Positions 8,890 to 60,235 of a DNA stretch of 64,000 bases are shown piece after piece. The stretch lies in contig NC_057730.1 in the NCBI RefSeq assembly GCF_004010195.1, positions 8,572,574 through 8,636,573 of the forward strand, read 5' to 3'. The notes under the pieces are model-generated. The model was given only the letters and a program-made list of their open reading frames with translations. It was not told where the DNA came from and searched no databases. Numbering within the stretch: position 1 is the stretch's first letter; each line of letters begins with the position of its first letter. This DNA comes from Chiloscyllium plagiosum (lineage: Eukaryota). A program made the translations under genes and the position numbers.

Positions 8890-11800
8890 TTGTACCCCTC
8901 TGCAGAATCTCTACTTCCTTGACAACTTGCTTTCCTGTACCCATGTTAGTGTAATTGGCAAAATTAGCTACGTAACATTAGTAGTAAAATGATTAACCTG
9001 TTATTGACCTTCCTAGTATTGGATTCTAACCATTTTCCCAATGAAGGATGTTAGACTCCTTTTCGGTTTCCCTCCTTTCTTGAATAAAGTTGTTATATTG
9101 TTACTTTCCACTCCGTTAGGCCTCTTCCAAAATCTAAGATGTTTTGGAAAATTGTAACTCGTACCTTTTTAAGATTCAAAAATACAGACTATTTGATCCT
9201 GGAGACTTGTGAGCCTTTGGGTCTAATAGTTTTCCCAGCAACTTCTCCCTGCCTTGTTTTAAACTTCTCTCTTTCAGTCATGTTTTGATTTTCAAGTGTC
9301 TATGGAAGGTTTGCTAGTGAAGATATATGCAAAATACATTCTCAGCACTGCTGTTATTTCCTTGTTCTCCATTATCAACTCCTCACAACTCAATCTCTAG
9401 AGGACCAATACAATCCTTAGTTATTCCTTTGTATGCAGAAACTCCTCTTATCTGCTTTTGAAATACTAGCTGAATTTCTTTCATACTCTACCTTTTCGGT
9501 CCCTTTTGTCACCCTTCTTTCTGGTGCTTAGAATTTGCCCAATCTTCTGATCTGTGACTAATATTTATAGTTTGGTTCAATATTTGTTTCAGTTTGGTAC
9601 AATTCTTAACCATGGGTGATACATCCTTCTCAAATAGTCTTTCTTTCTCACTGGGATCCACCTTCGCTGAGGGTTAATAAATATCATCTTAAAAGCCTAT
9701 CAACGTGCTTCTACTGTTCTATCTTTTACCTCAATTTCTCAGTTCGCTTTAGCTCACTCTACCTTAATGTCCTTTTATAGTTCTTGCCATTTATGTTTAA
9801 AATGCTAGCTTTCGACCCAACTTGTTCCCTTCAAACTGAATGTGAAATGTTATGTTGTGCTTGCAATCACATGGAGGTTCCATTACTTTGAGGTTATTGA
9901 TTAAATCTGTCCCATTGGAAGTTGATAGGTTTAGATATTGTTCCAAATACAACTTGCAAACTCCTTTTCCAGGCTACCTTTGTCAATCTGATTTGTCATT
10001 CGTACTTATATCAATCCCTATATGTGCCCTTTTTAAAAAAAATTGCCTGTGTACTCTGACCCAATGGTGTAACTATTAGAGGGGCCTATAAACTACTCTC
10101 TCAATATAATTTTAACTTTTTCTATTTCTTATCACTTACCCAGACTGATTCCACATCTTGTAGAAAGTCAGGACTGCAGATGCTGGAGATTAGAGTCGAG
10201 AGTGTGGTGCTAAAAAAGCACAGCAGGTCAGGCAGCATCGAGGAGCAGGAGAATCGACATTTTGGGCATAAGCCCTTCATTAGGAATGAAGCTTGTTGGC
10301 CAGGGGTCTGATAAATGAGGGGGAGGGGGGGGGGGGGGGTTGGGGGGGACAGAATATGTTTTCTGCATTAAGAGACCATTCAGCATTCTGGAGAGACCAT
10401 TCCCTCTGTGACTCCCTCGCCAGGTCCACACCCCACACCATCCAACACACTCCATTCCCAGCACCTCCCCCAACCACCGCAGGAAGTGCAAAACCTGAGC
10501 CCACACCACTCCCCTCACCGCTGTCCAAGGCCTTCCACATCTGACAGAAATTTACCTGTACCTCCACCAATTCATCTACTGCAGCCTGTTGCTCCTAATG
10601 TGGTCTCCTCTACATCAGGGAGACAGGATGTCTCCTTGCAGATCAATTCAGAGAACATCTCTGGGATACCTGCACCAACCAACCCTACCGCCCCGTGGTT
10701 GAACACTTCACCTCCCCCTCCCACTCTGCCAAGGATATGCAGGTCCTGGACCTCCTCCATTGCCAAACCCTTACTACCCGATACCTGGAGGAAGAGCGAC
10801 TCATATTCCATCTTGGGACCCTGCAAATACATGGGATCAATGTGGATTTCAACAGTTGTCTCTTTTCCCCTCCCCCCCACATTATCCCAGTCCCCTTCCT
10901 CCAACTGCACACCACCCTCTTGACTGGTCCATCTATCCGCTCCACCCTCCTCTCCGAACTATCACCTTCTCCCTCACCTTCATCTATGTACTGCATTCTC
11001 AGTTACCTTCCCGGCTCACCCCATTCCCATTTATCTCTCAACACCCCTCGCCTCACAAGCCCCATTCCTGATGAAGGGCTTTTGCCTGAAACGTCGATTC
11101 TCCTGCTCCTCGGATGCTGCCTGACCTGATGTGCTTTTCAAGCATCAAACTCTCGATTCTGATTCCACATTTTGCTGTTTTTAGCTAAAATCATCTCCTG
11201 CTGCTGTACCAATATCATCCTTGATTAACAAAGCTACCTTGTTGTCACCATTTCCTATCTTCCTGTTGTTTTGAAATGGCAAGTACCTTTCAACATTCAG
11301 GTCACAGACTTGGTCACCTGGTACCCATGTCTCTGTAATGACAATCATGTTGTATGCATTTATTTCTACCATTGCTGACAGTTCATCATTTTGATACAAA
11401 TGTGTGCGTTAAGATGCAGACTTCTAATTTTTTTAACCATTTTTGCAATCTTTGGCCTTATCATCTGGTGTTTTCTTGTGTTTATACACTCTGGTTCCTT
11501 TCTGTCATACTGTGATGATTGTTGGCAGAATAGCTATTCTGGTCTATTACATTTTATAGACTCCCTTTTATTTTCCATGTTTCCTCTCACATGCTTTGTT
11601 CTCCCTGCTGTTTAGTTTAAAGCCCATTTCTACTGCCCTAGTTATTCCACTCCAGTGATGCAGCTCCCATTTTTTTTCCATGTCAGTGTTCCATGAATCA
11701 AAACCTATTTCTCCCACACTGCTATTTGCATCTTGCATTCAATTCTCTAATCTTATTTACATCAATTTGCTTGTGGCATATGTAAATAAAAGCAGATTGA

Positions 11801-11960: not shown

Positions 11961-12263
11961 TCTAGACTCTCAGTCTGAACTGTGGAAAATTATGTTCGTC
12001 CACTTAACTATACTGACCCCTAGTACTGCCGCATTCTTACTGACCCTCCCAGTTGACTAGATTCTTGTAGCATGGGGCTGTGATCGGTTCACTACTGCAG
12101 GCCCCTTTCTCTAATGTGTACAAGTTACAGAAACCTTAGAGTTGCAGAAGCAGAACCATTTTGTGATCTTGTTTAAAAGTGCTCCTGATGTTTGTTGATG
12201 CGGTGAGGTGCTGGAGAGTCTCTGTGCTTTTGAAAAACACATTGTTTTCTCATTATTTTGCAG

Positions 12264-12443
12264 GCAGTCAATGGACAAACCAAAGAACTGTGCCCTCGGT
12301 TGTGCTGCATGCAGAAGTGCCAAAATGGCTACGGTTTTAACCTTCACAGTGAGAAAGCAAAACCAGGGCAATACATCCGATCTGTCGATCCAGATTCCTG
12401 TGCTGCTAAAGCTGGCCTGCGGCCTCAGGACAGAGTTGTGGAG
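12264..12443 (+). CDS. NHERF2: NHERF2/SLC9A3R2 internal exon, first half of PDZ2
   Basis: ttttgcag|GCA...GAG|gtaact, 180 bp, phase 0/0. Translates [60 protein letters not shown], with the NHERF PDZ GYGF loop. Confidence 0.95.
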
Positions 12444-12574
12444 GTAACTATACCTTTTCCAAACTCTCTGTAATTTGGCATCGTTTATTATTGACTCTAC
12501 TGGCCCTTCTAAGATAGTTGAGATCTAACAGATGTTTCGTAAAAATCATGCATTTACCAGCTGCCTCTTTGCAG

Positions 12575-27199: not shown

Positions 27200-27947
27200 G
27201 GTCATAGAGATGTACAGCACTGAAACAGACCCTTCGGTCCAACTCGTTCATGCCAACCAGATGTCCCAACCAAATCTAGTTCCACTTACTGTCCCATATC
27301 CCTCCAAACCTTAGCTATTCATATACCCATCCAGATGCCTTTTAAATGTTGCAGTTGTACTAACCTCCACCACTACTTCTGACAGCTCATTCCATACACA
27401 TACCACCCTCTGTTTGAAAATGTTGCCCCTTTGGTCTCTTTTATATCTTTCCCCTCTCACCCTAAACCTATGCCCTCTAGTTCTGGACTCCCCCACTCCA
27501 GGGAAAAGACTTTGTCTATTCACCCTATCCGTGCCCCTGATGATTTTATAAACCTCTACAAGGTCACCCCTCAGCCTCCAATACTCCAGGGAAAAACAGT
27601 CCCAGCCTGTTCAGCCTCTCCCTATAGCTCAAATCCTCCAACCCTGGCAACAACATTGTAAATCTTTTCTGAACCCTTTCAAGTTTCACAACATCCTACC
27701 GATAGGAAGATGACCAGAATTGAACGCAACATTCCAAAAGTGGCCTAACCAATGTTCTGTACAGCTGCAACATGACCTCCCAAGTCCTATACTCAATACT
27801 CTGACCAATAAAGGAAAGCAAACCAAAAGCCTTCTGCACTATCCTATCTACCTGCGACTCTACTTTCAAGGAGCTATGAACCTGCACTCCAAGTTCATTT
27901 TTGTTCAGCAACCTTCCCTAGGACCTTACCATTAAGTGTATAGTCCT
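27200..27947 (-). mobile_element. CR1 LINE 3' portion
   Basis: YRTLVRPLLECCVQFWS and TRGHRFRVRGERYKRD; reverse complement of 30740-31425. Confidence 0.9.
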
Positions 27948-28128
27948 AAGTTAAAAATCACCCAACACCAGGTTATAATCCAACAGGTTTAATTGGAAGC
28001 ACACTAGCTTTCGGAGTGACGCTCCTTCATCAGGTGATAGTGGAGGGCTCAATCCTAACACACAGAATTCTGGTGTTGTGTCATTTTTAACTTTGTACAC
28101 CCCAGTCCAACACCGGCATCTCCAAATC
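27948..28128. mobile_element. PLE-derived mini-element (family B) with inverted ends and a hammerhead-like core
   Basis: 12-bp TSD gtgtatagtcct at 27936-27947 and 28129-28140. Core on the - strand at 28002-28036. Confidence 0.8.
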
Positions 28129-28262
28129 GTGTATAGTCCTGCTACTGAGTCAACTTCGCTCCCTGCAAGGTGTCAACCCATCTTCAATTATTGGTTGTCT
28201 GACTGTACTACGTGTACCATCACTTGGTTACATTTAGAGGTCTCCTCCCAAGCCCAGTTTAC

Positions 28263-30244: not shown

Positions 30245-30404
30245 CACACAGACAGACAGAGAAAAGCAAGTTTACTGGTTGCTCTCCAGTGACCGATGTC
30301 ATCTGGAGTATTTCCATGGAGGACAATTATGTATTGTGTTAACAATTGCTTATTTTCTGCTGACAAAACAGTTTGTTTGGAGCCGGTTCTCTCTCTTTAG
30401 TGCA

Positions 30405-31425
30405 GATATGGCTCAAAGGTAGAAGACAGAGGGTGGTGGTGGAGGGTTGTTTTTCAGACTGGAGGCCTGTGACCAGTGGAGTGCCACAAGAATCGGTGCT
30501 GGGTCCTCTACTTTTTGTCATTTACATAAATGATTTGGATGTGAGCATAAGAGGTACAGTTAGTAAGTTTGCAGATGACACCAAAATTGGAGGTGTAGTG
30601 GACAGCGAAGAGGGTTACCACAGATTACAACAGGATCTGGACCAGATGGACCAATGGGCTGAGAAGTGGCGGATGGAGTTTAATTCAAATAAATGCGAGG
30701 TGCTGCATTTTGGGAAAGCAAATCTTAGCAGGACTTATACACTTAATGGTAAGGTCCTCGGAAGTGTTGCTGAACAAAGAGACCTTAGAGTGTAGGTTCA
30801 TAGTTCCTTGAAAGTGGAGTCGCAGGTAGATGGGATAGTGAAGAAGGCGTTTGGTATGCTTTCCTTTATTGGTCAGAGTATTGAGTACAGGAGTTGGGAG
30901 GTCATGTTGCGGCTGTACAGGACATTGGTTAGGGCACTTTTGGAATAGTGTGTGCAATTCTGGTCTCCTTCCTATCGGTAGGATGTTGTGAAACTTGAAA
31001 GGGTTCAGAAAAGATTTACAAGGATGTTGCTGTTTTCCCTGAAGCATCGGAGGCTGAGGGGTGACCTTATAGAGGTTTACAAAATTATGAGGGGCATGGA
31101 TAGGATAAATAGACAACGTCTTTTCTCTGGGGTTGGGGAGTCCAGAACTAGAGGGCATAGGTTTAGGGTGAGAGGGGAAAGATATAAAAGAGACTTAAGG
31201 GGTAACTTTTTCACGCAGAGGGTGGAACGTGTATGGAATGAGCTGCAAAAGGATGTGGTGGAGGCTGGTACAATTGCAACATTTAAGAGGCTTTTGGATG
31301 GATATATGAATAGGAAGGGTTTGGAGGGATATGGGCTGGGTGCTGGCAGGTGGGACTAGATTTGGTTGGGATACCTGGTTGGACCGAAGGGTCTGTTTCC
31401 ATGCTGTACATCTCTATGACTCTAT
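30405..31425 (+). mobile_element. CR1-clade LINE RT plus 3' end (young, few disruptions)
   Basis: WRPVTSGVPQESVLGPLLFVIYINDLD...KFADDTK; tail ctctatgactctat. Confidence 0.95.
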
Positions 31426-32099
31426 ATGCACTGTCCTCTGTTTATCTCCAGCATGGAGAATTCTTGGAATGGTACAATCAGAACAGTCTATTGTGATTGC
31501 TGCTGCAAATGTGACTACTCAAAGTATTTCTTTGGCTATGAAGTGCTTTCAAGTGATCAGAAGTCACAAAAGGTGCTATATTAATGGAAGTTCACTGTTT
31601 GTCCCTTTTCCATCAGTCATAAATTACTGCTGCACATTGCTCAATACAGGAATTTTGTATGTGTGTTTGAGCTTGTGACAACTTGGCATGATCATCTTGG
31701 GCCTCACCTCCATTTCCTGTGCATGCACCAACCCCCCTGCCCCCCACAACTTCCTCAGAGTCCAATATCCCTCTTTTCCAGTCTTAAATACTTTCAACAA
31801 TGATGAAGCTTTCATAACCCTTGTGTGGGGCAAAGAATTTCACAGGTTGAGTAATTTTTCTTCAGCTCAGTCCCAAATGATTGTCCTCTTATTTGGGACT
31901 GTTCACCTGTGTTTAGTTTTGACAACCAGCAGAAACACAGTCTCTCAGCACCAACCTCGAGAATCCTGGCAGTCAGTCAATCTCACACCCCCATTCTAAG
32001 TGATTAAAGACTTAACAGCAATCTAAGTTTGTTCAATATATTGCATCAGTTCTATGATACTTGAATACTTTAAATTCTGTGTCCTATGACTCTGCCCCA

Positions 32100-32228
32100 C
32101 TAGCCACCTAATGAAGGAGCAGCACTCCAAAAGCTTGTACTTTCAAATAAACTTGTTGGACTATAACTTGGTGTTGTGTGATTTTTAACTCTGTCCACCC
32201 CAGTCCAACACTGGCACCTCCACACCAC
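32100..32228 (+). mobile_element. PLE-derived terminus (family B), degenerate hammerhead-like core
   Basis: cacctaatgaaggagcagcactccaaaagctt...ttggactataacttggtgttgtgtgatttttaac. Confidence 0.75.
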
Positions 32229-34397: not shown

Positions 34398-34558
34398 GAC
34401 AAGCAGGAGGTTGTAAGAACACAAGTCAGGCAACATCAGGCGATGGAGAAGTCAATGTTTCAGGTGTAAGCCTTCTTCCGAGTTATAACCAAAACAATTG
34501 ATCTCTCCACTTGATGCTGCTGCCTGGCTTGCTGTGTTCTTCTAGCCTCCTGCTTGTC
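34398..34558. repeat. Fold-back (inverted) PLE-terminus-like element
   Basis: gacaagcaggagg...aagaacaca pairs with tgtgttctt...cctcctgcttgtc. Confidence 0.6.
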
Positions 34559-34569
34559 AATGTTGAAAG

Positions 34570-35350
34570 GGACTTGGCAAACTGCCACAGTGCTACTCTG
34601 ATGATACACAAAGCTGCCACTATGTGTCAGTGGAAGCGGGATTGAATAATTACGCTGGTAATGCCTATCAAGTGGATTGCTGGATCTTGGAATTTTTGAG
34701 CTCCTTAAGTGGTGCTAGAGTCACACAGAATATATAAGGCTGAACTGATTAAATTTCTGGTTGATGATAACTCCCAAAATGTTGATTGTTAGGTATTCAG
34801 CAATAGTAATGATTATGAATGTCAAGAGGAGATAGTTAGATTCCCGCTAGTTGGAGATTGCCATTGCCTGGTACTCAGGTGGTATATAAATGTTACTTAC
34901 CACTTACCAGCTCAGACCTGAAAGTTGTCCATACTTTGGAATGTGGGAATGGCATTCAGTGTCTGAGGAATCTTGAATGGCAATTTGCAATCATCAACTA
35001 ATCTCTCCACTTCTGATCTTACGATGGAGGGAATATCATTGATGAAGCAGGTGAAGATGGGTGGACCGAAGACAACACTGGGAGGAACTCTTGCAGTGAT
35101 ATCCTCAGACTAGGAAGATTGACTTCCAAATAAACTGATTGGACTATAACCTGAAGTGTGATTTTTAACTTTGTTGATAACCAGAACCATTTTCCTTGGT
35201 TCTATGATTGACTTCAACTGGTAAGAGTCTTGCTCCTCATTCTCAACATTTTTAGGGTTCCTTGATGCCACACATTGTCAAATACTACCCTGATGTCCAG
35301 GATAGTCAATTCAACTCTGAAGTTTGGCTTCATTGTTCATGTTTGAATCA
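34570..35350 (-). mobile_element. Old non-LTR retrotransposon RT remnant
   Basis: The - strand reads ...VPPSVVFGPPIFTCFINDIPSIVRSEV..DDC, a degraded GVPQGSVLGP/FADD region. Confidence 0.6.
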
Positions 35351-37147: not shown

Positions 37148-37352
37148 CGAGAAAGTGAGGACTGCAGATGCTGGAGATCCGAGCTGAAAAATGTGTTGCT
37201 GGAAAAGCGCAGCAGGTCAGGCAGCATCCAAGGAGCAGGAGAATCGACATTTCGGGAATGCCTGAAGAAGGGCTTATGCCCGAAACGTCGATTCTCCTGC
37301 TCCTTGGATGCTGCCTGACCTGCTGCGCTTTTCCAGCAACACATTTTTCAGC
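37148..37352. mobile_element. Palindromic PLE-derived mini-element (family A)
   Basis: 74-bp arms at 37183-37256 and 37279-37352 with one mismatch. TSD cagttagctagat at 37135-37147 and 37352-37364. Confidence 0.85.
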
Positions 37353-37564
37353 AGTTAGCTAGATGATTGATTTATGATGCAGAGTATACCAACAGCATGG
37401 GTTCAATTCCCATGCTCACTGATGGAGATTCTGCCTTCTTGCCACTCACTTGAGGTGTGGTGAAGCTCAGGCTAAACATTCACCATCACTACTCTGTCTC
37501 GCCTCAAAAAGCCTCTGGACCCAGAGATAATAGCAACATTACTATAAGATCTTAGAAAAGAGAA

Positions 37565-38118
37565 TGATGAAGGGCTCCTGCCTGAAATGTCGCTTTTCCT
37601 GTATTCTGCATTTAAATTTCACCTTCCAAAGTGAACGACTTCACATTTTTCCCAGGTTGGACTCCATCTGTCTCTTATCAGCCTAGTTCTGCTTCCTGTC
37701 ATGTCTTGTTGCAACTTACAACAACTTTCCACACTGTCCACAGCTCCACCAACCTTTGTGTCATCGACAAATTTACTAACCCACTCTTCCACTTCCTCAT
37801 CCAGATTTGTAAAAATCACAGAGCAGAAGTTCCAGAACCAACCCCTGCGGAACAAATTGGTCATGGACTCCAGGCTGAATACTTTCCATCTACCACCAAA
37901 CTCTATCTTCCGTGGGCCAGCCAATTCTGTATCCAGGTTTCCCAGTATCCCATTCCTCCTTTTTTAAATGAATGAGCCTACCATGGGGAACCTTATCAAA
38001 CTGAGAAGGTAAGGGCGCCCTCAACGTCGATTTTCCTGCTCCTCGGATGCTGCGCTTTTCCAGCACCACTCTAATCTTGACTCTGATCTCTAGCATCTGC
38101 AGTCCTCACTTTCGCCTA
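37565..38118. mobile_element. Composite element: CR1 RT fragment (-) flanked by family A PLE termini in direct orientation
   Basis: tgatgaagggctcctgcctgaaatgtcg at 37565; SKFVDDTKVGG on the - strand; PLE tail 38003-38118. Confidence 0.7.
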
Positions 38119-39094: not shown

Positions 39095-40210
39095 CAGGAC
39101 GCCTGACATCAGTAATGGGAAATTTGTTACAATCAGTTGTAGAGGATGCGATTAATGTATATTTGGATAATAATGACCTGATTGGGTCAAATCAGCATGT
39201 ATTTGCAAATGGTAAATCGTGTTCGACGAACTTGGCGTTTTTTGAGGTTGTCTCTGACAAAGTTGATAATACGGCGCTGGTGGACATAATAAACTTGGTT
39301 TATCAGAAGTCTTATGATAAAAGCGCCCAGAGGAAGTTGCTTAACAAAATCAAAAGGCATGAGACAGTGGATAAAGAACCAGCATGGATTAAGGCTTGAC
39401 TATCAGACAGATTTTGGGGGTGCTGGTGTTGAACTGGGTTGGACACGGTCAAAAATCACACAACACCAGATTATAATCAAATCGGTTTATTTGAAAACAT
39501 GAACTTTCAGAGCGCTGCTCCTTCATCAGGTGCTCGAGACCTCACTAGAGACCACTTACAGACACTCATAATCCCCGCTCCCTGCCCAACGCAAACCCAA
39601 ACACGTACACATATAAGTTTGTGGAGTGAGTTTGTTCTTGCAGAATTACATTTTACTTTTTTTGAAAAGTGCCTGAATCCATGTAAGATTCTGTAAATCT
39701 GTTTTTTAGATTAGAATCAGTCTGAACATTGTGGCACAGTCTCACACAGTGCAGCTCACACCTTAAATACATTATCTGGGCCCACATGACACCAATTGTT
39801 AAAGATCACTTGAGAATGTAACTTTTAAAAAGGTTTTGCGATTTAAATATGAAAGAACTGAAACCAACATGTTCATTCTAAAAGATGAGAGACTTAACAA
39901 ACAATCCAGGTCTTTTTCAATATATACAATTTCAGTTACATCACACTGTAAACGTTTGCTATAAATTCTGTGCGTTACGATCTTATACTCCACTCCTGAT
40001 GAAGGAGCAGCGCTCCAGAAGCTAATGTTTTCAAATAAACCCGTTGGACTATAACTTTGTGTTGTGTGATGTTTGACCTTATCAGACAGAAAATAGTTGG
40101 AGCACTGGTATGACCGGAGAACAGTCATTCTCCATTTGGCAGACTGCAACTAGTGGGGTACTGGAAGGATAATTCTCCAGCCCCAAGCACTCACAATATA
40201 TAACAATGAT
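39095..40210 (+). mobile_element. Degenerate CR1 RT fragment interrupted by a PLE insertion
   Basis: LTSVMGNLLQSVV...NQHVFANGKSCSTNL...; continues at 40090 with WQTATSGVLEG. Confidence 0.75.
39412..40079 (+). mobile_element. PLE-derived element (family B) with inverted termini
   Basis: 11-bp TSD tatcagacaga at 39401-39411 and 40080-40090. ctgatgaaggagcagcgctc cores near 39530 (-) and 39996 (+). Confidence 0.8.
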
Positions 40211-41334: not shown

Positions 41335-41791
41335 CAAAGTTTGTGAGAAGATTTGTAGCTCGGGTGCTCGTTGCTGTGGTTCTGTTCGCCGAGCTGGAAG
41401 TTTTTGTTGCAAACGTTTCGTCCCCTGTCTAGGTGACATCCTCAGTGCTTGGGAGCCTCCTGTGAAGCGCTTCTGTGGTGTTTCCTCCAGCATTTATAGT
41501 GGCCTGTCCCTGCCACTTCCGGTTGTCAGTTTCAGCTGTCCGCTGTAATGGCCTCTTCCTGTTTGTCCTATGTAGTGTTTTGTGCAGTCCTTGCATGTGA
41601 TTTTGTACACTACATTAGTTTTGCTCATGCTGGGTATCAGGTCCTTCGTTCTGGTGAGTTGTTGTCTGAGTGTGGCTGTTGGTTTGTGTGCTGTTATAAG
41701 TCCTAGTGGTCGCAGTAGTCTGCCTGTCAGTTCAGAGATGTTCTTGATGTATGGTAGTGTGGCTAGTCCTTTGGGTTGCGGCATGTCATCG
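41335..41791 (-). mobile_element. Penelope-like element 3' fragment (family C) with GIY-YIG start
   Basis: LPYIKNISE...TNVVYKITCKDCTKHYIGQTGR. 10-bp TSD cttactagct at 41325-41334 and 41792-41801. Confidence 0.88.
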
Positions 41792-43429
41792 CTTACTAGC
41801 TGCCAACATAGAGCATAGTGATTACAGCTGACAATATTAAGGTCACAACATTTCCCATCATCTGAACTGTATCATGGGGCATTGAAGTAAATAGGAGTTG
41901 ATTGAGTAGGTGTTAAGGATTCTTCTCGGTGGAAGAGATATAGCAAGGGAGAGATCCCATCAATGTATCCACCAAACTGATAAACTTAGCATCAGTGATA
42001 GAATCGAGGGAGTGGACAATGAGGAGGAGGCTAGTGTTGTAGACCAGATATTCAAAGTGTGAATATAAGTTCAGAAGATTTTGCAGAGTGTACAACGAAT
42101 CCATGGAGGATGTGGATTAACCTAAGCATTTTGAAAGTCAAATGGTGAACCAGTGGAAGTTGATGAGGAGAGTGGATGATTAATAAGTCGACCTTAGAAT
42201 GAAACTGAGTGAAGGAAACAAACTCTAGGTGAACCGCAACCCTTACTCAGTAATAATTTTATTGAATCATGGAGCAGGTTTACAGGAATAAAAGGGCTAC
42301 TTGTTGCTTATGTTTCCTATGGAAATCATATTAGAGTTCAAAAGTACACTTATGAGCACTGTGGGGAAGCCAGATATACAGATGAAGAAGTCGTAGATGA
42401 TTATTTCAGCAGTAGCTGGGGTGATGTAGAAAAGGAAATGATTGACACTTTTTGTGTAATCTTGAAGAACTGAGTTTGAAGAACTGAGTGGCCCTTTTTA
42501 TATTGATTTACCATTTACATTGTTCTCGTGATCTATTTGTCTATTTTTGCTTTACAAAATAGACACATCTTCTCCAGGGTCAGTTTTCTAAGTGTACTCT
42601 CTGAATATGAAATCCTACCTGTCAGAAGCACACATCTCGCAATGGAACATGTGCTCACCGTCATCTTCCATCTACAAATTGAAATGCACTGAACAGCATG
42701 TGAGGTAAGAATCAACATTTCTATTTCACTTCAATGACACCCCAAAGCATTTTAACACCAACTAAATTTTTTGAAGTCTGAACATTTTTGTAACATAGCA
42801 AAACACAATTTCTTGATGTACACTCATAGTTGAGGAGGTGACACGAAGTTCACATTCATGTAGTGCAATCTTCTTTTTTGTTGAATATAGAAATGTCATT
42901 CTTCATATTTCCCCCAAGTTATATTTGAAATGACAGCTTATTATCTCACTGGAGTAGTTTATGCAATGAAGGTCACCTCCTGATAGCCATGAGTGACTTA
43001 CATTGAAACCCTGGAAGGCTGATCAGTTGGAGGAGTTTGCATTTTAGAACATGCACCATGTACTGTTCCTTGAAAATATTTCAATAGCTTAGCTTCAAAT
43101 GAAACCTCAACCTAAATGTTTCTTACTAATCAATGCTTCATCATTATATCCTAGCTGATTTGTACATTATCCACGCACATTTTAATGATGCTATATTTTA
43201 ATTCTGAAAAGTGACACCTTTTAAATTAATCAGCAACCAGCATATGCTCTAACAAAGAGTAATCCTTCTTTTGGTTTTAGATGTATTCAGTCAAAAGTAC
43301 TGATTTCACTGCTTATAAGTCAATTTTCTACTCAGCTTGACCTAATATTTCAGTTCAATTTTAGCTTTTTGGAACATTCGAATTTTCTATTTCTATGCAT
43401 GAACTTGTCTATGTTTTTGCGAACAGTAG

Positions 43430-43885
43430 CACCCCTACAGTGAGCAAACAGGTCATCCAGGCCATCGAGTCTTCCCTCCCAAGATAATCCCACCCAGACT
43501 CACCCCACTATCCCTGTAACGCTGCATTTCTCATGCTGAATCCACTTAGTCTGATTTGGAGGTGTCGGTGTTGGATGGGTGTTAAAAGTTAAAAATCACA
43601 CAACACCAAGTTATAGTCCAACAGGTTTATTTGGAAGCACTAGCTTTCGGAGTGTTGCCAATCACCTGATGAAGGAGCAGCGCTTCGAAAGCTAGTGCTT
43701 CCAAATAAACCTGTTGGTCTATCACCTCTGCACACCACTGGACACTATGGGGCAATTTAGAATTGTCAGTCCATCTGAGCTACACATCTTTGAAACCCAC
43801 GCAGACACGGGGAGAATGTGCAAACTCCACACAGACACCTGAGGGGTGGGAATTTAATCCCCCTTTGTGAGGCAGCAACCGTGCC
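43430..43885 (-). mobile_element. HE1-type SINE interrupted by a PLE hairpin
   Basis: SINE body acccacgcagacacggggagaatgtgcaaactccacacagac on the right and tail on the left, split at 43552-43722. Confidence 0.7.
43552..43722. mobile_element. Palindromic PLE-derived mini-element (family B)
   Basis: Arms at 43613-43649 and 43686-43722; intact hammerhead-like core at 43663-43697. Confidence 0.8.
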
Positions 43886-44029
43886 GACCAGGAACAATAA
43901 AATATTAGTTGTCATTTATCAAGGCTGAGAACTTATTAAGGATCTTCGGGGGCTTGGGGGGGTCAATAATCACTGGTCCTTTGCGGAATATTTGACAATC
44001 CAGGAATGAATGAAAATAACGTCTGCCCC

Positions 44030-44115
44030 AAAACTACAGCCTGCCTACAATTCCCGGCAGGCATTGCGGGCGGCCGCCTGCCGAAACGGAAGTACCTGTG
44101 CGTGTGACGTCTGTT
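44030..44115 (+). promoter_or_regulatory. Putative TSC2 CpG-island promoter
   Basis: ZNF143/SBS-type CTACAATTCCCGGCAGGCATTGCG 44045-44068 (second ACTACA at 44033), ETS/GABP CGGAAGT 44087-44093, CRE-like TGACGT 44105-44110. Confidence 0.7.
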
Positions 44116-44197
44116 CCTGGAAGGCTGGGCCTGTAGCGGGAGCCAGGAGCTGGTGCAATGGGTGATTGAGGCGGCCGAGCGCGGCTCAGACGGCACG
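44100..44197 (+). other. TSC2: Putative non-coding first exon of TSC2 (start approximate)
   Basis: Strong donor CACG|gtgagt at 44197/44198 just downstream of the promoter motifs. Mammalian TSC2 also has a non-coding exon 1. Confidence 0.6.
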
Positions 44198-45176
44198 GTG
44201 AGTGGCAACTGGCGATTAGGATTAATGGGGGAGGGACTGCATTCGGGCAGCCCGGGAGAGGCAGTGAGGCCGAGCCTGGATCCGCCAAAATGGGGGAGGC
44301 CGCTGCAGTAAACAGCTCCTGGCCACTGTGGGGGCGGGGCATGAGAAGGTAAGGGAGGGGGGCGTGAACCACTGGGGAGGAGGGTGTATGGGGGGGGGGG
44401 AGAGACACACCATGGTAGGGAGGGCACCCCCTGGGGTGGGGGGGCACCATGGTGGAGAGTTCCCCCGTGGAGAAAGGGAGAGGAGGGTCCTTCCATAGAG
44501 GAGATTAGGAGAGGGGCGACCCCCTCCCAATTGAGGAGAGGAGCAGGGCTACCCCCATGGAAGAAGAGGGGGAGGGGGAGGCGGTTGTGTGGTCTGATGT
44601 GGAGGGGGTTCCCATGGAGGGGAGGGATGTCACAGTGTCTGGATGGAGTGGAACAGGAAGGATAGTATAAACATGGGGGTGGGAGCAGTCATGCAAAAAC
44701 ATGGAGTGGGGAAGGGGTGAGGGCGGATTGTTTGCAAGTTTGGAGGGGGAGGGGGAATGGGAATCCATGGAGGAGGAAGGGAGGACGTATGTGAACCTAT
44801 AGGGCTGTGGCAAGGGATGTGCATAAACCCTTGGAGAAGTTCATGCTGGGGACAGAGAGGTGCTTAAACCCAGAAGAAGTTGCTCAGGAAATTGAACTTT
44901 CTTCTGGGTAAAGCCTCCTCTTGGAACCCCAAAGTCTCCAATTTAAATGGAGACTTTTGAAGGGTTCTCATGAAATTAAGTAATATGCTCAGGAAAAACC
45001 TGAACCATTTAAGGGCATAGTATAACTCCTGAGTATTTAACAGACTCCACACATACATCTCACACTTTGTACGGCACCCCTCTTCTGACGTTACCCTGAT
45101 GTTTGCTGCTCAATAAATGACAACCCTCCTCATGAGTGGCGAAACATAAACTGATCCCAGACCCACTGGAGCCACT

Positions 45177-45492: not shown

Positions 45493-45814
45493 ACCCACTC
45501 CCATGCTGCCAGGCTCCAAAAAACCCTACCTGCCAGATCTAACCCGAGACCTTTGCCTCCACTAGACTCAAACCCTGTAGACTTGATGCTACACTCCCAT
45601 ACCCCCTGCCCAACTTATTCTTCCACTGATCCTGACCTACCCAACAGGCTGCATCGCCTACCTTGCCAGCTAACACCTTATCTCCTTCACATTTGTCATC
45701 TTACCCTAGTTCCATATCCCGTCCCCAGCCGTCACTAATTTGAGAGACTGCCACTTCACAGAATCTGGCCCATTGTGTTGGTTGACTTTGTTTGCAAATA
45801 ATCATTGTTCTCTT

Positions 45815-46700
45815 ATAGAGTCATAGAGATGTACAGCATGGAAACAGACCCTTTGCTCCAACTCGTCCATGGTGACCAAATATCCTAATCTAATCTAGTC
45901 CCATTTGCCAGCACTTGGCCTATATCCCTCTAAAATCTTCCTATTTATTTATCCATTCAGATGCCTTTTAAATAATGTAATTGTACCAGCCTCCATCACT
46001 TCCTCTGACAGCTCATTCCATATGCGCACCACCCTCTGGGTGAAAATGTTGCCCCTTAGGTCTCTCTCAAATTTTTCTCCTCTCACCCCAAAAATCTGCC
46101 CTCTAGTTCTGGACTCTTTTCCCCCCCCCCCAAGGGAAAAGACCTAATTTATTTATCGTATCCGTGCCCCTCATGATTTTATAAACCTCTATAAGGTCAC
46201 CCCTCAGCCTCCGACACTCCAGGGAAAACAGCCCTAGCCTATTCAGCTTATCCCTGTAGCTCAAATCATCCAACTCTGGCAACATCCTTGTAAATCTTTT
46301 CTGAACCCTTTCAAGTTTTAACATCATCCGACTGATAGGAGGGTGATCAGAGTTGTACACAATATTCCAAAAGTGGCCTAACCAATGTTCTGTACAGCAG
46401 CAACATAACCTCCCAAGTCCAACAAAGAAAAGCATATCAAATGCCACCTTCAGTATCCTACATACCTGCGACTCAACTCTCAAGGAACTATGAACCAGTG
46501 CTCCAAGGTCTCTTTGTTCAGCAACTTCCCTAGGACCTTCCCATTAAGTCTATAAGAACTGCTCTTATTTGCTTTTCCAAAATGTAGCACCTCACATTTA
46601 TCTAAATTAAACTCCATCTGCCACTCCTTAGCCCATTGGCCCATCTGATCAAGATCAGTTGTACTCTGAGGTAATCTTCATCACTGTCCACTACACCTCC
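45815..46700 (-). mobile_element. CR1 LINE 3' portion
   Basis: KLERVQKRFTRMLPELDDLSYRDKLNRLGLFSLECRRLRGDLIEVYKIM. Confidence 0.9.
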
Positions 46701-47124
46701 TTTTAATGAACCTTGCTCGTTTTAATGCAAGTCATGTTGTTCGTTTGTGTCTTTGACGGTAGCAGTTATTATTTTAGATCTTGCATTGAGCATTTAGCCA
46801 GTGCTAAGGTATGTATCTTTTATATGCCAGAGATCAGTTTGTTATCGGAAAAGGTGATAGATTTAGACTTTGAGTCACAAGTACCAAGTTTTTCACACCA
46901 TTTCATTCAGTGGGTTTTGGCTTTACTGAAAATTTTCCCTGCCCTGCAGTGTCCTGATGTGTTTGTGCAACAGTACTTTTCACATAAACAGACTGCTGCA
47001 GTTAATATACATGGTTTCTAGCAATTATTTAATGATCTCCTTTTGCGTTGGGATTTGGTGTCTTTTGCATCCTTGAAGTGCTTTGGGTATTTTATTACAT
47101 TTAAAGGCTTTAGGCTTGAAGCAT

Positions 47125-48365
47125 TATAGAGTCATAGAGATGTTCAGCACGGAAACAGACCCTTCGGTCCAACCTATCCATGCCAACCAGATATCCCAAC
47201 CCAATCTAGTCCCACCTGCCAGCACCCGGCCCATATCCCTCCAAACCCTTCCTCTTCATATAACCATCCAAATGCCTCATAAATGTTGCAATTGTATCAG
47301 CCTCCACCACTTCCTCTGGCAGCTCATTCCATACACGTACCACACTCTGCGTGAAAATGTTGCCCCTTAGATCTCTTTTATATCTTTCCCCTCCCACCCT
47401 AAACCTATGCCCTCTAGTTCTGGACTCCCTGACCCCAGGGGAAAGACTTTGCCTATTTATCCTATCCATGCCCTCATAATTTTGTAAACTTCTATAAGGT
47501 CACCCCTCAGCCTCCAATGCTTTGGGGAAAACGGCCCCAGCCTATTCAGCCTCTCTCTAAAGCTCAGATCCTCCAACCCTGGCAACATCCTTGTAAGTCT
47601 TTTCTGAACCCTTTCAAGTTTCACAACATCTTTCCGATAGGAGGGAGACCAGAATTACACGCAATATTCCAACAGTGGCNNNNNNNNNNNNNNNNNNNNN
47701 NNNNNNNNNNNNNNNNNNNNNNNNNNNNNNNNNNNNNNNNNNNNNNNNNNNNNNNNNNNNNNNNNNNNNNNNNNNNNNNNNNNNNNNNNNNNNNNNNNNN
47801 NNNNNNNNNNNNNNNNNNNNNNNNNNNNNNNNNNNNNNNNNNNNNNNNNNNNNNNNNNNNNNNNNNNNNNNNNNNNNNNNNNNNNNNNNNNNNNNNNNNN
47901 NNNNNNNNNNNNNNNNNNNNNNNNNNNNNNNNNNNNNNNNNNNNNNNNNNNNNNNNNNNNNNNNNNNNNNNNNNNNACTGAAGTCCATATAGATCACATC
48001 AACTGCTCTGCCCTCATCAATCCTCTTTGTTACTACTTCAAAAAACTCAATCAAGTTTGTGAGACATGATTTCTCATGCACAAAGCCATGTTGACTATCC
48101 CTAATCAGTCCTTGCCTTTCCAAATAAATGTACATCCTGTCCCTCAGGATTCCCTCCAACAACTTGCACACTACCAAGTTCAGGCTCAACGGTCTATAGT
48201 TTCCTGGCTTGTCTTTACAGCCCTCCTTAAACAGTGGCACCACGTTTGCCAACCTCCAGTCTTCGGGCACCTCACCTGTGACTATCGATGATACAAATAT
48301 CTAAGCAAGAGGCTCAGCAGTCACTTCTCTGACTTCCCACAGAGTTCCCGGGTACACGTGATCAG
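47125..48365 (-). mobile_element. CR1 LINE RT plus 3' end spanning an assembly gap
   Basis: PEDWRLANVVPLFKEGCKDKPGNYRP...SQHGFVHEKSCLTNLIEFF...VDVIYMDFS. Confidence 0.9.
47680..47976. other. Assembly gap (297 N)
   Basis: Run of N. Confidence 0.99.
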
Positions 48366-51724: not shown

Positions 51725-51847
51725 TCATCCTTTCCTGATGAAGGGCTTTTGCCCGAAACATCGATTTTCCTGCTCCTCTGATGTTGCCTGACTTGCTGTG
51801 CCTTTCCAGCACCACACTCTTGACTCTAACCTCCAGCATTTGCAGAC
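51725..51847 (+). mobile_element. PLE terminus (family A) with an intact hammerhead-like core
   Basis: ctgatga-a-gggc-tttt-gccc-gaaac-atc at 51735-51762. Confidence 0.8.
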
Positions 51848-52016
51848 CTGTTCGAGGTTCTGTCCAACTGCTCCTGGATAGGCAAGCTTTGCTTTGTGCA
51901 TCCACTAAGATTATCACTGATAGATGTACAGATTCACTTGCAGGTCTGCAGAGCTGATTCCTGATTTAATCATTTATTTACTTCAGTTTAGGGAAGGTTG
52001 AACATCCCCCTTGATC

Positions 52017-55506: not shown

Positions 55507-55591
55507 GTATGTGTGTGACGTATTTAGAAAGGTCTTTGAATGGCTAGGCTGATGCTGAAGTTTTTGTTGAAACTCAAACTTAAGTTTTGTT

Positions 55592-55775
55592 CAAAGTTAA
55601 AAATCACACAACACCAGGTTATAGTCCAGTGGGTTTAATTGGAAGCACTAGCTTTCAGAGCACCGCTCCTTCATCAGGAAGCTAGTGCTTCCAATTAAAC
55701 CTGTTGGACTATAACCTGATGTTGTGATTTTTAACTTTGTACATCCCAGTCCAACACCGGCATCTCCAAATCATG
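55592..55775. mobile_element. Palindromic PLE-derived mini-element (family B)
   Basis: Arms at about 55592-55654 and 55679-55739 around a core on the - strand. Confidence 0.8.
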
Positions 55776-57407: not shown

Positions 57408-58413
57408 TGTAAGTTAGCTCGCAGAGCTGGAGGTTTTTTCAGACGTTTCGCCCCATGATTAGGTAACATTATCAGTGAGAGTCTCCAGAGAAGCTCTGCA
57501 GGTATGTCCCACCTCTCTCTTTATAGGTCTTATGTTTCTTAAGATGGGTGATGTCATTTCTGGTTTTGTTTTCAAGGGAAGGTAGATGGGACCTAAGTCG
57601 ATGTGTTTATTGATGGAGTTCTGGTTAGAATGCCATGCCTCTAAGAATTCTCATGCGTGTCTTTGTTTTGCCTGTCCTAGAATGTGTTTATTGTCCCAGT
57701 CAAAATGGTGTCCTTCTTTGTCTGTATGTATGGAAACTAGTGATAGTGGATCGTGTCTTTTGGTGTCCAGTTGGCGTTCATGTATCGTGGTAGCAGGTTT
57801 CCTGCTTGTTTGTCCGATGTAGTGTTTTATTTTTACAGTTTTTGCATAGTGTTTTGTAAGTGGTGTTAGTTTTGCTGGTAGTATCTAATGGATCCTTTAG
57901 GTTCATTAGTCACTGTTTTAATGTGTTGGTAGGTTTGTGGGCTACCATGATGCCAAGTAGTCTGGAAGTCTTTTCTGATATGTCTTTGATGTAAGGTAAT
58001 GTGGCTATAGTTTTTGGTTGCGTTGTGTCTGCTGTTTAGGTTTGTTTCTGAGGAATCAGCAGATTGTGCTTATTGGGTAACAGTTTTTCTTAAAAACATT
58101 GTATAGGTATTTTTCTTCTGTTTGCAGTTCTTGGGTGCTGTAGTGTGATGTAGCTCGTTGGATAATGTCTTGATGCAACTGTTTGTGGGTGTTGGGATGA
58201 TTGCTTCTGAAGTTAAGTATTTGGTCCGTGTGTGTTGTTTATCTGTAGACGCTGGTTTGAAGCTCTCCGTTAACTGTACGTTCAACTGTCTCGTCTAGGA
58301 ATGAGAGTCTGTTGATGTTCTCCTTTTTTGTGAATTTTATGCATGTCAGGATATAGTTGACGGTGCTGTATGTTTCCTCTAATTTGAGATGACAAAGGTG
58401 TCATCCATGTAGA
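57408..58413 (-). mobile_element. Penelope-like element, inverted 3' copy (family C)
   Basis: Reverse complement of about 59165-60190 (YMDDTF...LPYIKDIS...GIY-YIG...3' UTR). Confidence 0.9.
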
Positions 58414-58414
58414 C

Positions 58415-60235
58415 TTAAAAAAAGATAAAAACATTGTAATAATTCCTGCAGATAAGGGTTACATGACAGTCTGGTTTGTTTAAAATAACAATCTTAAAAA
58501 GGCAAATGCTCTGCTTGCAGACACTGACATTTACCAGCAGGTGGCGATAGACCTGACCTCACAACGACTAAACAGAATCTCATCCTTTCTAACAAGACTT
58601 TAAAAAATCAGGAGAATTAAACAGGGCAGACTTTAAAAATATGAAACCAGATGGATCCAACGCCACGCTTCTACGGATTACCAAATATACATAAATTTGG
58701 GGCCCCCTCAGACCCATAGTCTCTCTACCTGGCACACCAACATACAGACTAGCCAAGGAACTCCACCAAAAACTAAAACATCTAATTGAAGATTCATGTC
58801 ACTCTATTCACTCCGCCCAAAAATTCCTGTACACCATCAAAGACACCAAGGTAGAAGGGGACGAAATAATGGTCTCCTTTGACACTACAGCCCTTATCAC
58901 ATCAATTAACATCGACCTGGCCAAAGAAACACTGACATCACTACTAGGAAAACCAAGACCACAAACACCAGACAGCACCAACTTCATCAGCAAAGACACC
59001 ATTCTCAAGCTAGTGCCTCACCACCCACTTCACATTCAATAAAATAAACTTACAAACAAGTCAACGGCACATCCGTGGGATCACCAATATCAGGGCTCGT
59101 AGCAGATGCAGTAATGCAGAGACTTGAACAAGTTGCCGTCCCATCTATCCAACCCAAATATGGGTCCGCTACAGGAATGACACCTTTGTCATCACAAAAT
59201 GGAGCAAATTAGAGAAAACATACAGTATCATCCTGACGCTCATAAAATTCACAAAAAGAGGAGAACATCAACAGACTCTCATTCCTAGATGAGACAATTG
59301 AACATACATTTAACAGAGAGCTTCAAACGAGCGTCTACAGAAAAACAACACACACCGGCCAAATACAAAACTTCAGAAGCAATCATTCCAACACCCACAA
59401 ACGGAGTTGCATCAAGACATTATTCCAACGAGTTACATCACACCACAGCACCCAAGAACTGCAAACAGCAGAAGAAAAATATCTATACAACGTTTTCAAG
59501 AAAAACAGTTACCCAATAAACACAATCCGTCGATTCCTCAGAAACAAACCCAAATAGCAGACACAACGCAACCAAGAACTATAGCCACATTACCTTACAT
59601 TAAAGACATATCAGAAATGACTTCCAGATGACTCAGACCCCTTGGCATCATGGTAGCCCATAAACCTTATCAACACACTTAAACAGCAACTAATGAACCA
59701 TTAGATACTACCAGCAAAACTAACGCCATTTACAAAATACCATGCAAGAACTGTAAAACAAAAAACACTACATCGGACAAACAAGCAGGAAACTTGCTAC
59801 CAGGATATATGAACACCAACTGGCCACCAAAGACACGGCCCACTATCACTAGTTTCCATACATACAGACAAAGAAGGACACCACTTTGACTGGGACAATA
59901 CACACATTCTCGGACAGGCAAAACAAAGACACGCATGAGAATTCTTAGAGGCATGGCATTCTAACCAGAACTCCATCAATAATCACATCGACTTAGGTCC
60001 CATCTACCTTCCCTTTTGGGAAAAAAAAAGAACCGGAAACGATATCACTCACCTTAAGGAACCAAGACCTATAAATAGAGAGGTGGGACATACCCGAGCA
60101 CTTCACCAGAGACACTCGCTAATGATGTTACCTAGTCATGGTGACGAAATGTTGAAAACAAACCTTCCAGCTCAGCAAGCTAATTTATACCCATATCATC
60201 AACCTGAACTACAAATCTTCTCAAAAATCACTAAC
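58415..60235 (+). mobile_element. Penelope-like element RT plus GIY-YIG, 5'-truncated and frameshifted
   Basis: IVIIPADKG, FYGLP..HK..APLRPIVS, MVSFDTTAL.TSI, GTSVGSPISG, YKIPCKNC...YIGQTSR..ATRIYEH. Confidence 0.92.

Follow-up and report, generated by a model that had tools for sequence, protein, structure and literature searches.

What is the hammerhead-like core that lies in a palindromic fold-back beside the TSC2 gene of the shark Chiloscyllium plagiosum, and can it still act as a ribozyme? The original prediction, made from the letters of the DNA, had assigned it to a high-copy, retrozyme-like and protein-free derivative of Penelope-like elements (PLEs) that may still self-cleave. Having analysed the window, by which we mean the whole stretch of 64,000 nucleotides around the locus, we conclude that the fold-back is very probably a dead, one-step insertion of an endonuclease-bearing (EN-bearing), likely Neptune-type, PLE, consisting of two 5′-truncated terminal repeats joined head to head and holding a hammerhead that is predicted not to fold. 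The ribozyme and the insertion pattern are both of an already published PLE kind. The only fresh element is that a poly(A) site past the hammerhead is in use, as seen in one RNA run from a related organism, with priority unproven.

The hammerhead motif within the fold-back

The letters and stems that had been reported for 43663–43697 (+) agreed with our read-out of the sequence. The core C3–A9 occupies 43666–43672, with A43673 as an additional nucleotide behind it; CAC/GUG form the 3 bp of stem I, stem II (43674–78/43682–86) has five pairs, including one G-U, with a 3-nt loop, and GAAA (43687–90), a palindromic AGCU (43690–93) and a CUA triplet (43692–94) complete the motif. It satisfies CUGANGA ... 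GAAA ... UH in type I order, the conserved core of minimal hammerhead ribozymes (min-HHRs), with A43673 unpaired between 9 and 10.1 and with G43674-C43686 as the G10.1-C11.1 pair, while the loopless helix III is palindromic at 15.2-16.2, pairing at 15.1-16.1 and 15.2-16.2 in all eight rows of the alignment described below. Core, extra nucleotide and G10.1-C11.1 pair bear out the class that had been proposed, namely the minimal type I hammerhead of PLEs, in which helix III is palindromic. With a strict min-hammerhead descriptor, as had been suggested for a check, we found two matches in the window (43666 + and 28033 −), compared with a mean of 0.003 and a maximum of 1 in 300 Markov-shuffled windows, and the motif is therefore not a chance match. 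The loose pattern CTGATGA..GAAA alone was weak (6 found vs 2.35 expected in the window). No Rfam hammerhead model matched the focal sequence at the gathering threshold, nor at E≤10, which weakens only its status as a canonical Rfam member; the sub-threshold Rfam matches of the fold-back were weak ones to generic pre-miRNA models and reflect its hairpin shape.

The fold-back itself spans 171 bp (43552..43722) and is made of two opposed end pieces of a repeat that we call family B (Table 1). The 37-bp arms ascribed to it were recovered as 37 pairs when allowing one mismatch, with 32 perfect pairs (43618–43649 with 43717–43686), and pairing continues inward through G-U pairs, giving a minimum free energy of −94.2 kcal/mol (z −13.4) on folding. 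When stems I and II were forced in the focal copy, the cost was 38.3 kcal/mol compared with the hairpin, with pair probabilities of 0.0000, so that this hammerhead is predicted to be unable to fold and would not be expected to cleave; continued self-cleavage of the focal copy, as earlier considered, is hence unlikely according to the folding model. Dimer co-folding of the hammerhead led to strand-swapped folds. The left arm runs outward across poly(A) signal, GU-rich tract and tail. The fold-back splits an older repeat, which we take to be a SINE, into pieces at 43435–43551 and 43723–43870. As a separate observation, the end of the right arm (43722) and the start of the right arm of the 28k pair (28070) both fall near the poly(A) cleavage position, a coincidence that may be due to chance or to microhomology with the target.

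Table 1. Features of the window discussed in the text, with positions counted from its first nucleotide.
Feature	Position	Strand	Remarks
Family-A pair enclosing decayed GIY-YIG C-terminus	10145..11174	.	Single-ended tail; target duplication of 16 bp, one position mismatched
Family-A copies	11062-11160, 37150-37354, 37561-37601, 38017-38113, 51729-51850, 61383-61481, 10162-10307		Head-to-head, one-tail, target-duplication layout
Family-B head-to-head pair	27936..28140	.	Intact core on minus strand; tail confined to right end; target duplication of 12 bp
Single family-B copy with upstream sequence and tail	31992..32226	+	Core mutated at G5 and G12
Short family-B fragment	35115..35175	+	Without core or tail
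Family-B head-to-head pair	39401..40090	.	About 460 nt of upstream sequence between cores; tail at left end only; 11-bp target duplication
Related family-C end	41350-41790	−	
Older dispersed SINE-like repeat split by the fold-back	43435..43870	+	Aligned with five other window copies
Left arm, 5′-truncated family-B terminal repeat	43552..43658	−	Starts within hammerhead stem II, without CUGAUGA
Optional tail, left end only	43552..43584	−	About 32 nt, by alignment; tail as defined in excerpts of PMC8557442 and PMC11167929
AATAAA (43626-43631) followed by GU/U-rich tract	43591..43631	−	Candidate poly(A) site with intact consensus, oriented as NTHL1
Right arm, no tail	43659..43722	+	Starts 7 nt ahead of hammerhead core; stops short near poly(A) site
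Minimal type I hammerhead motif	43663..43697	+	Predicted scissile bond 43694/43695
AATAAA of right arm	43704..43709	+	GU-rich downstream tract absent
GC-rich stretch	44000..44600	.	CpG-rich at 44.0-44.2k, by composition
Family-B head-to-head pair	55588..55775	.	Tail at right end only; no target duplication found
Family-C inverted PLE	57410..60230	.	Decayed remnants of RT and GIY-YIG; a degenerate hammerhead at either end

Loci and architecture of family B

Family B has six loci with ten arms in the window, or about one locus per 11 kb. All five related cores that had been pointed out, at 28002–28036 (−), 32104–32135, about 39505–39532 (−), 39995–40025 and 55650–55678 (−), were present at these places, but only two of the six family-B cores (43.6k and 28.0k) passed the strict descriptor. 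The description of the family as a high-copy repeat was supported by 14,041 and 15,711 contig records matching one unit at 80% likeness in two DNA runs, which are numbers of records and not copy numbers, and parts of the unit were present in indexed sequencing runs of four organisms, with no RNA run listed among them.

Four of the loci (28k, 39–40k, 43.6k and 55.6k) are head-to-head pairs and two are single, and the centres differ in all four pairs. At 28k, a copy starting about 38 nt ahead of the core is joined to one starting just past the poly(A) site; at 39–40k, about 460 nt separate the two cores; at 43.6k, a copy cut within stem II meets one starting 7 nt ahead of the core; and at 55.6k, a copy starting 1 nt ahead of the core is joined to one starting at the GAAA region. 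Four fold-backs with four different centres speak against a palindromic element copied as a unit, as had been envisaged. The family furthermore has two 3′ ends, about 34 nt apart, with the longer end on one side per pair. This tail of about 34 nt occurs in 5 of the 10 arms and was single-ended in all three complete pairs; the 43.6k pair is also single-tailed, with its opposite end eroded. Target duplications were found in two of the four pairs (12 and 11 bp), and none at 55.6k or, as a significant one, around the 43.6k pair. Because inverted truncated pairs, varied centres, single-ended tails and target duplications match published PLE signatures, we read family B as the product of an EN-bearing PLE.

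The view first taken of this locus, that of a protein-free and retrozyme-like palindrome, would have the element transcribed, self-cleaving as a dimer and spreading via small (circular) RNAs, and could draw upon the high copy number and the intact core in two of the six copies. By definition, however, retrozymes consist of head-to-tail tandem units that all hold a hammerhead, and the window contained no such array of the family-B unit; its ends instead bear PLE tails and target duplications, the pair centres vary as described, and the hammerhead is buried by the hairpin. Also considering the transcript data given below, we judge that view to be very unlikely.

Sister families and homologues in PLE context

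Two further hammerhead-bearing families in the window retain coding remnants. Family A has a related hammerhead, with a 4-bp stem II, an ACGU palindrome and a GUC triplet, and both of its complete pairs carry a single-ended tail and a target duplication (16 bp with 1 mismatch, and 13 bp); its GIY-YIG remnant at 10.1–11.2k matched the protein P0001, the relatives of which carry reverse transcriptase (RT) and GIY-YIG, at E 7e-36. No AATAAA directly followed the core in the family-A copies examined. The best protein relative of a window repeat fragment was from Chiloscyllium punctatum, at 76% identity. Family C has Poseidon-like ends in which the core is followed by one additional U and preceded by TATA words, 49–53 nt upstream; its RT and GIY-YIG pieces were found at 41.4k and 57.4–60.2k, and the 57–60k copy is a long inverted insertion within a TSC2 intron. 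Family B appears Neptune-like and family C Poseidon-like, labels assigned by motif and not by a tree, with family B being without a shark protein. The window also holds a fourth, decayed hammerhead-like end (34440–34550, −), the downstream part of which is family-A-like, as well as several LINE-type RT remnants (Pfam RVT_1) and shared 3′ ends at 27201–27900, 30364–31426, 45813–46650, 47124–48300 and 60788–62260.

Using a relaxed core pattern in metagenomes, we obtained six matches, three of which (L002, L004 and L005, comprising two families) lie in PLE context, further favouring the PLE reading. L005, from a marine metagenome like L004, carries a CxxxxCxxC linker and a GIY-YIG end (E 9e-13 to P0001), followed after about 750 nt by the hammerhead and AATAAA; its linker conforms to the CX2-5CxxC linker that precedes GIY-YIG in both Neptune and Nematis. 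L002 has the same end as L005, inverted against an RT (Pfam RVT_1 E 1.2e-5), and in L004 a GIY-YIG C-terminus (E 7e-9) is followed after about 210 nt by the hammerhead. The Pfam GIY-YIG model gave no direct match to L005 or to the window fragment, and P0001 itself fell below its cut-off (E 0.005). Outside of the searched pattern, L004 and family B were identical at 20 of 21 nt (score 35, compared with 27 for the best of 2000 shuffles), whereas L005 was not significantly similar to family B 3′ of the core (1154 of 2000 shuffles as good), such that L005 may be said to share the hammerhead type and layout with family B, with common descent not proven. In L004, which is a marine contig, prokaryote- or virus-like coding sequence (1–520 and 1000–1663) flanks the PLE end, and this contig is probably a chimeric assembly, or else holds an insertion. 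Exact family-B downstream patterns gave no matches in the viral, prokaryote-genome and metagenome collections. Eight viral-contig matches to the relaxed core pattern were rejected as chance, none having PLE homology or similarity to the window, and a search of the viral contigs with P0001 yielded no locus.

An open reading frame (ORF) context of RT plus C-terminal GIY-YIG was thus seen for L002, L004, L005 and families A and C, and not for shark family B. None of its six window loci is adjoined by an ORF, the upstream sequence at 39.5–40.0k contains no PLE reading frame, and protein searches of family B gave no link, with a tail-frame query against longer proteins, which is a weak test, being likewise empty; its translation was also absent from the N-termini of 151 PLE-like proteins. 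Family B could therefore be a non-autonomous, ORF-less derivative of about 500–600 nt including the upstream part, using the protein of an autonomous PLE and leaving the short pairs as truncated products. Non-autonomous PLE derivatives are published (in the available portions of PMC8557442 and of preprint 10.64898/2026.07.22.740005), and read depth drops almost to nothing around 39600, where the shared upstream part ends in the reference. That drop may, however, only mark where the reference copy is truncated or diverged, and a missing ORF is expected since all window copies are 5′-truncated; moreover, homologous modules directly follow the GIY-YIG end, and families A and C with the same layout do have ORF remnants. 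We consider such a derivative decidedly unlikely. By homology, the modules lying directly 3′ of the GIY-YIG ORF ends in L004 and L005 also argue against the family being protein-free, as do the PLE ORF remnants flanked by families A and C in the window.

The tails of both families A and B contain letters resembling a branch point and an AG acceptor (e.g. 55730–55775 and 51815–51850), and an ATG is found after the B tail at 55.77k as well as at the end of L005. A spliceosomal 5′-UTR intron ending in the tail is possible.

Conservation and decay of the hammerhead

For covariation we aligned eight rows, being the six window cores, L004 and L005; L001, L003 and L006, without stem I and significant PLE context, were left out, as was L002, which duplicates the L005 hammerhead. 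Pairing cells amounted to 87.5% over the eight rows, with 1 of 500 shuffles as good. In stem I three pairs showed both-sides changes, a count matched in 89 of 500 shuffles over eight rows of which two were selected by pattern, and in stem II no both-sides change was seen, either among the shark copies or over all eight rows. Since the metagenome search pattern dictated the greater part of the core and of stem II, pairing there follows by construction in the two outside rows, for which stem I alone gives independent evidence. In these rows stem I has 5 bp, both in L004 and in L005, with a both-sides change at pair 2.2-1.2, and the A-U to U-A change next to the core in L004 is the clean one of the three. 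Families A and C have different stem II letters and the ACGU palindrome, and these differing letters agree with a structure conserved across families A, B and C.

Among the shark copies, the CpG spanning C11.1-G12 is mutated in four of the six window cores, and G12 was found in 47% and 52% of the depth in two DNA runs, values biased by the reference having A at that position. The two arms of the 43.6k pair carry independent decay changes. The shark family-B copies look as if they decay like neutral DNA after insertion.

Transcripts and a poly(A) site in use past the hammerhead

We examined family-B transcripts in one run (X21) of raw poly(A) single-cell RNA from a related organism (organism B), of which about 2% was read, with 2,097 reads aligned to the right unit of the 39401..40090 pair as reference. 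Strand was assigned by the stranded-library rule and by the runs of A lying on the plus strand. Reads in the hammerhead sense dominated by about 5:1 at the core. Sense depth went from 668 at 40018 to 636 at 40025, immediately behind the predicted cut, and from there to 509 at 40042 and to 28 at 40056, with 139, 132, 101 and 67 in the opposite direction over the same positions; the loose ends that were listed included runs of A at 40051 (160 reads) and 40054 (189 reads), and the depth of the DNA runs showed no fall in that region. The RNAs are hence polyadenylated 29–30 nt beyond the hammerhead cleavage site, which is crossed uncut, at a position 14–15 nt past AATAAA and ahead of the GU-rich tract, that is not A-rich. 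All nine arms spanning this site retain AATAAA (six) or ATTAAA (three) before the GU-rich tract. Several upstream indel variants among those listed show that more than one locus contributes RNA, and these RNAs may be either element mRNAs or host 3′ UTRs.

An expressed, sense-biased family RNA could also be expected for the retrozyme-like palindrome discussed above. The reads nevertheless spanned the CUA cleavage site with no pile-up of molecule ends, in a poly(A)-selected library that favours uncut RNA and would not reveal cleaved products, and no 'go back' joint was found among the 15 joints listed, with 61 more beyond these.

Nine of the ten arms extend past the poly(A) site and none of these then has an A-tract, so that the template for insertion must be read-through RNA. 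At the other end, both B copies of sufficient length have a TATA-like word 36–39 nt ahead of the core (TATAAA at 39960, within the reference pair, and TTTAAA at 32069), which would place the start site a few bases ahead of stem I. Heterogeneous loose ends before 39995 were seen in 238 and 251 contig records and derive in part from an indel in the reference.

Our literature searches, with several older PLE papers lying outside their coverage, found no description of a PLE poly(A) site behind a hammerhead, and term look-ups in PMC2377424 and PMC8557442, within the text they returned, likewise gave none; poly(A) tails on a Chlamys PLE transcript are mentioned in the latter.

The NTHL1/TSC2 context

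Tuberin (TSC2) exons were found on the plus strand at 52.8k and 55.4k, and NTHL1 exons on the minus strand at 38.4k, 36.5k and 33.6k. From composition and gene identities we infer that the GC-rich stretch between them is a bidirectional promoter of the two head-to-head genes; the TSC2 promoter, next to which the fold-back had been placed, would thereby be located from about 44.0k as one common with NTHL1. About 350 bp separate the CpG-rich stretch from the fold-back, which stands on the NTHL1 side. Because of a donor-like minus-strand site near 44096 and an exon-like segment at 42619–42671, the fold-back is likely within NTHL1 intron 1, in which case the hammerhead would be antisense to NTHL1. 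Sites resembling splice donors occur on both strands within 44085–44215, at a spacing of about 100 nt, and suggest that the first exons of NTHL1 and TSC2 overlap or nearly touch. The poly(A) consensus of the left arm (43591–43631, −), partly within the hairpin, is a candidate premature termination site in the putative first intron of NTHL1. A PDZ-domain exon at 12234–12470 (+) may, to judge from synteny, belong to NHERF2/SLC9A3R2 beside NTHL1.

Could this copy have been retained for a host role at the promoter, serving as an intronic poly(A) site of NTHL1 or as a double-stranded RNA hairpin? Its distance to the CpG-rich stretch, its likely intronic position, the intact signal with GU-rich tract in NTHL1 sense and the weak pre-miRNA scores of the hairpin would all be compatible with such a role. 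With one family-B locus per approximately 11 kb, however, proximity to a promoter is expected by chance, and the arms have acquired independent decay changes, making us regard a host role as extremely unlikely.

Discussion

The reading that we favour, of a dead EN-bearing PLE insertion, can be cast as a mechanism. The family-B terminal repeat would comprise, from 5′ to 3′, the TATA-like box seen about 36–39 nt before the core, with a putative promoter function; the minimal hammerhead, the cleavage of which may depend on dimers or protein to judge from the literature; the poly(A) signal with GU-rich tract, used in the RNA run of the related organism; and the optional tail of about 34 nt, which by analogy with an anole element may lie between two start points of reverse transcription. 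The protein of the element would nick the target on both strands, copying would be primed inside read-through, uncleaved RNA at either start point and would stop early, and the two short copies would join at their truncated ends. Such two-ended copying could yield pairs with variable centres, a single-ended tail and a target duplication, with the inserted copies then decaying like neutral DNA. If the start site lies a few bases before stem I, many of the short copies may be run-off copies of the RNA 5′ end, and no separate protein-free element would be needed for explaining them.

The hammerheads that PLEs keep were slow in vitro and dispensable for insertion according to sections of PMC4209133 and PMC11167929. 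With polyadenylation occurring just past the scissile bond, cleavage might be expected to strip the tail from the element mRNA, and RNA serving as a template for transposition must evade 3′ processing. We tentatively raise the idea, with a minor chance of being correct, that the family-B pseudo-LTR is a compact LTR-like cassette combining a TATA box and start site with the hammerhead, a functional poly(A) site and an RT-start tail, in which the ribozyme, 29–30 nt before the poly(A) site, would be a conditional switch removing the mRNA tail, only read-through RNA would be copied, and dispersed ends would give shark transcripts their 3′ ends. If true, the PLE hammerhead gains a testable job besides that of making the transposition template. 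Shark genes might also acquire cryptic poly(A) sites from the abundant family-B ends.

Comparison with known systems

In one terminal repeat, family B unites TATA box, AATAAA and GT-rich tract, as does the R/U5 region of LTRs (portions of PMC3601003), a comparison of how the parts work only. In contrast to LTR retroelements, family B showed neither an integrase nor a primer-binding site nor TG..CA ends, and its hammerhead separates the TATA box from the poly(A) signal.

Metazoan non-LTR retrozymes (Cervera & De la Pena 2020; PMC7229834) are, from what is given there and in the preprint of Li et al. 2026, head-to-tail tandem units of about 150–450 bp giving rise to circular RNAs. Family B resembles them in being non-coding, having a type I HHR and deriving from PLE pseudo-LTRs (pLTRs), and such elements are reported by the preprint in a chondrichthyan genome; it differs in its single or head-to-head copies, in its PLE tails and in the lack of arrays in the window.

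Minimal type I hammerheads in pLTRs of metazoan PLEs were described by Cervera & De la Pena (2014; PMC4209133), in the parts considered here, for Xena, Poseidon and Neptune of fish and for coelacanth, frog and reptiles, mostly as single or opposite-strand copies of several families per genome, with opposite-strand pairs 100–700 bp apart. Family B shares with these the type I order, the unpaired nucleotide 9/10.1, G10.1-C11.1, the palindromic 15.2-16.2, the absence of loop 3 and the short helix I, while its helices II and I, of 5 and 3 bp, fall short of the lengths seen in schistosome min-HHRs. That text names no sharks and mentions no poly(A) site. Given these min-HHRs, and with preprint 10.64898/2026.07.22.740005, in its accessible part, covering one chondrichthyan genome, the novelty in sharks that had earlier been suggested for the element is not supported; the chondrichthyan families of that preprint may include family B. 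Cleavage of minimal hammerheads as dimers is covered in a review (PMC6765202, in extract) and in PMC4209133.

For the Poseidon element PAc of Anolis carolinensis (Frangieh et al. 2024; PMC11167929, in part), the tail lies between two internal RT start sites, the protein cuts and extends both strands using uncleaved RNA, the HHR is dispensable for insertion and RNA-seq ends are absent at the HHR site. The ORF of PAc begins in stem II, whereas the AUG in the family-B core meets a stop after 8 codons.

EN-bearing PLEs, finally, are known from passages of Craig et al. 2021 (PMC8557442) with an inverted 5′-truncated copy and a tail of 30–40 bp at one end, and from those of Arkhipova et al. 2013 (PMC3846280) with inverted pLTRs, target duplications of 8–10 bp and a 31-bp tail. 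The halves of family B are mostly cut to 60–125 nt with no ORF remaining, unlike in those insertions. They nonetheless share 5′ truncation, the head-to-head inverted copy, the single-ended tail and duplications of about 8–16 bp with these elements, and the homologue L005 carries the linker of Neptune and Nematis.
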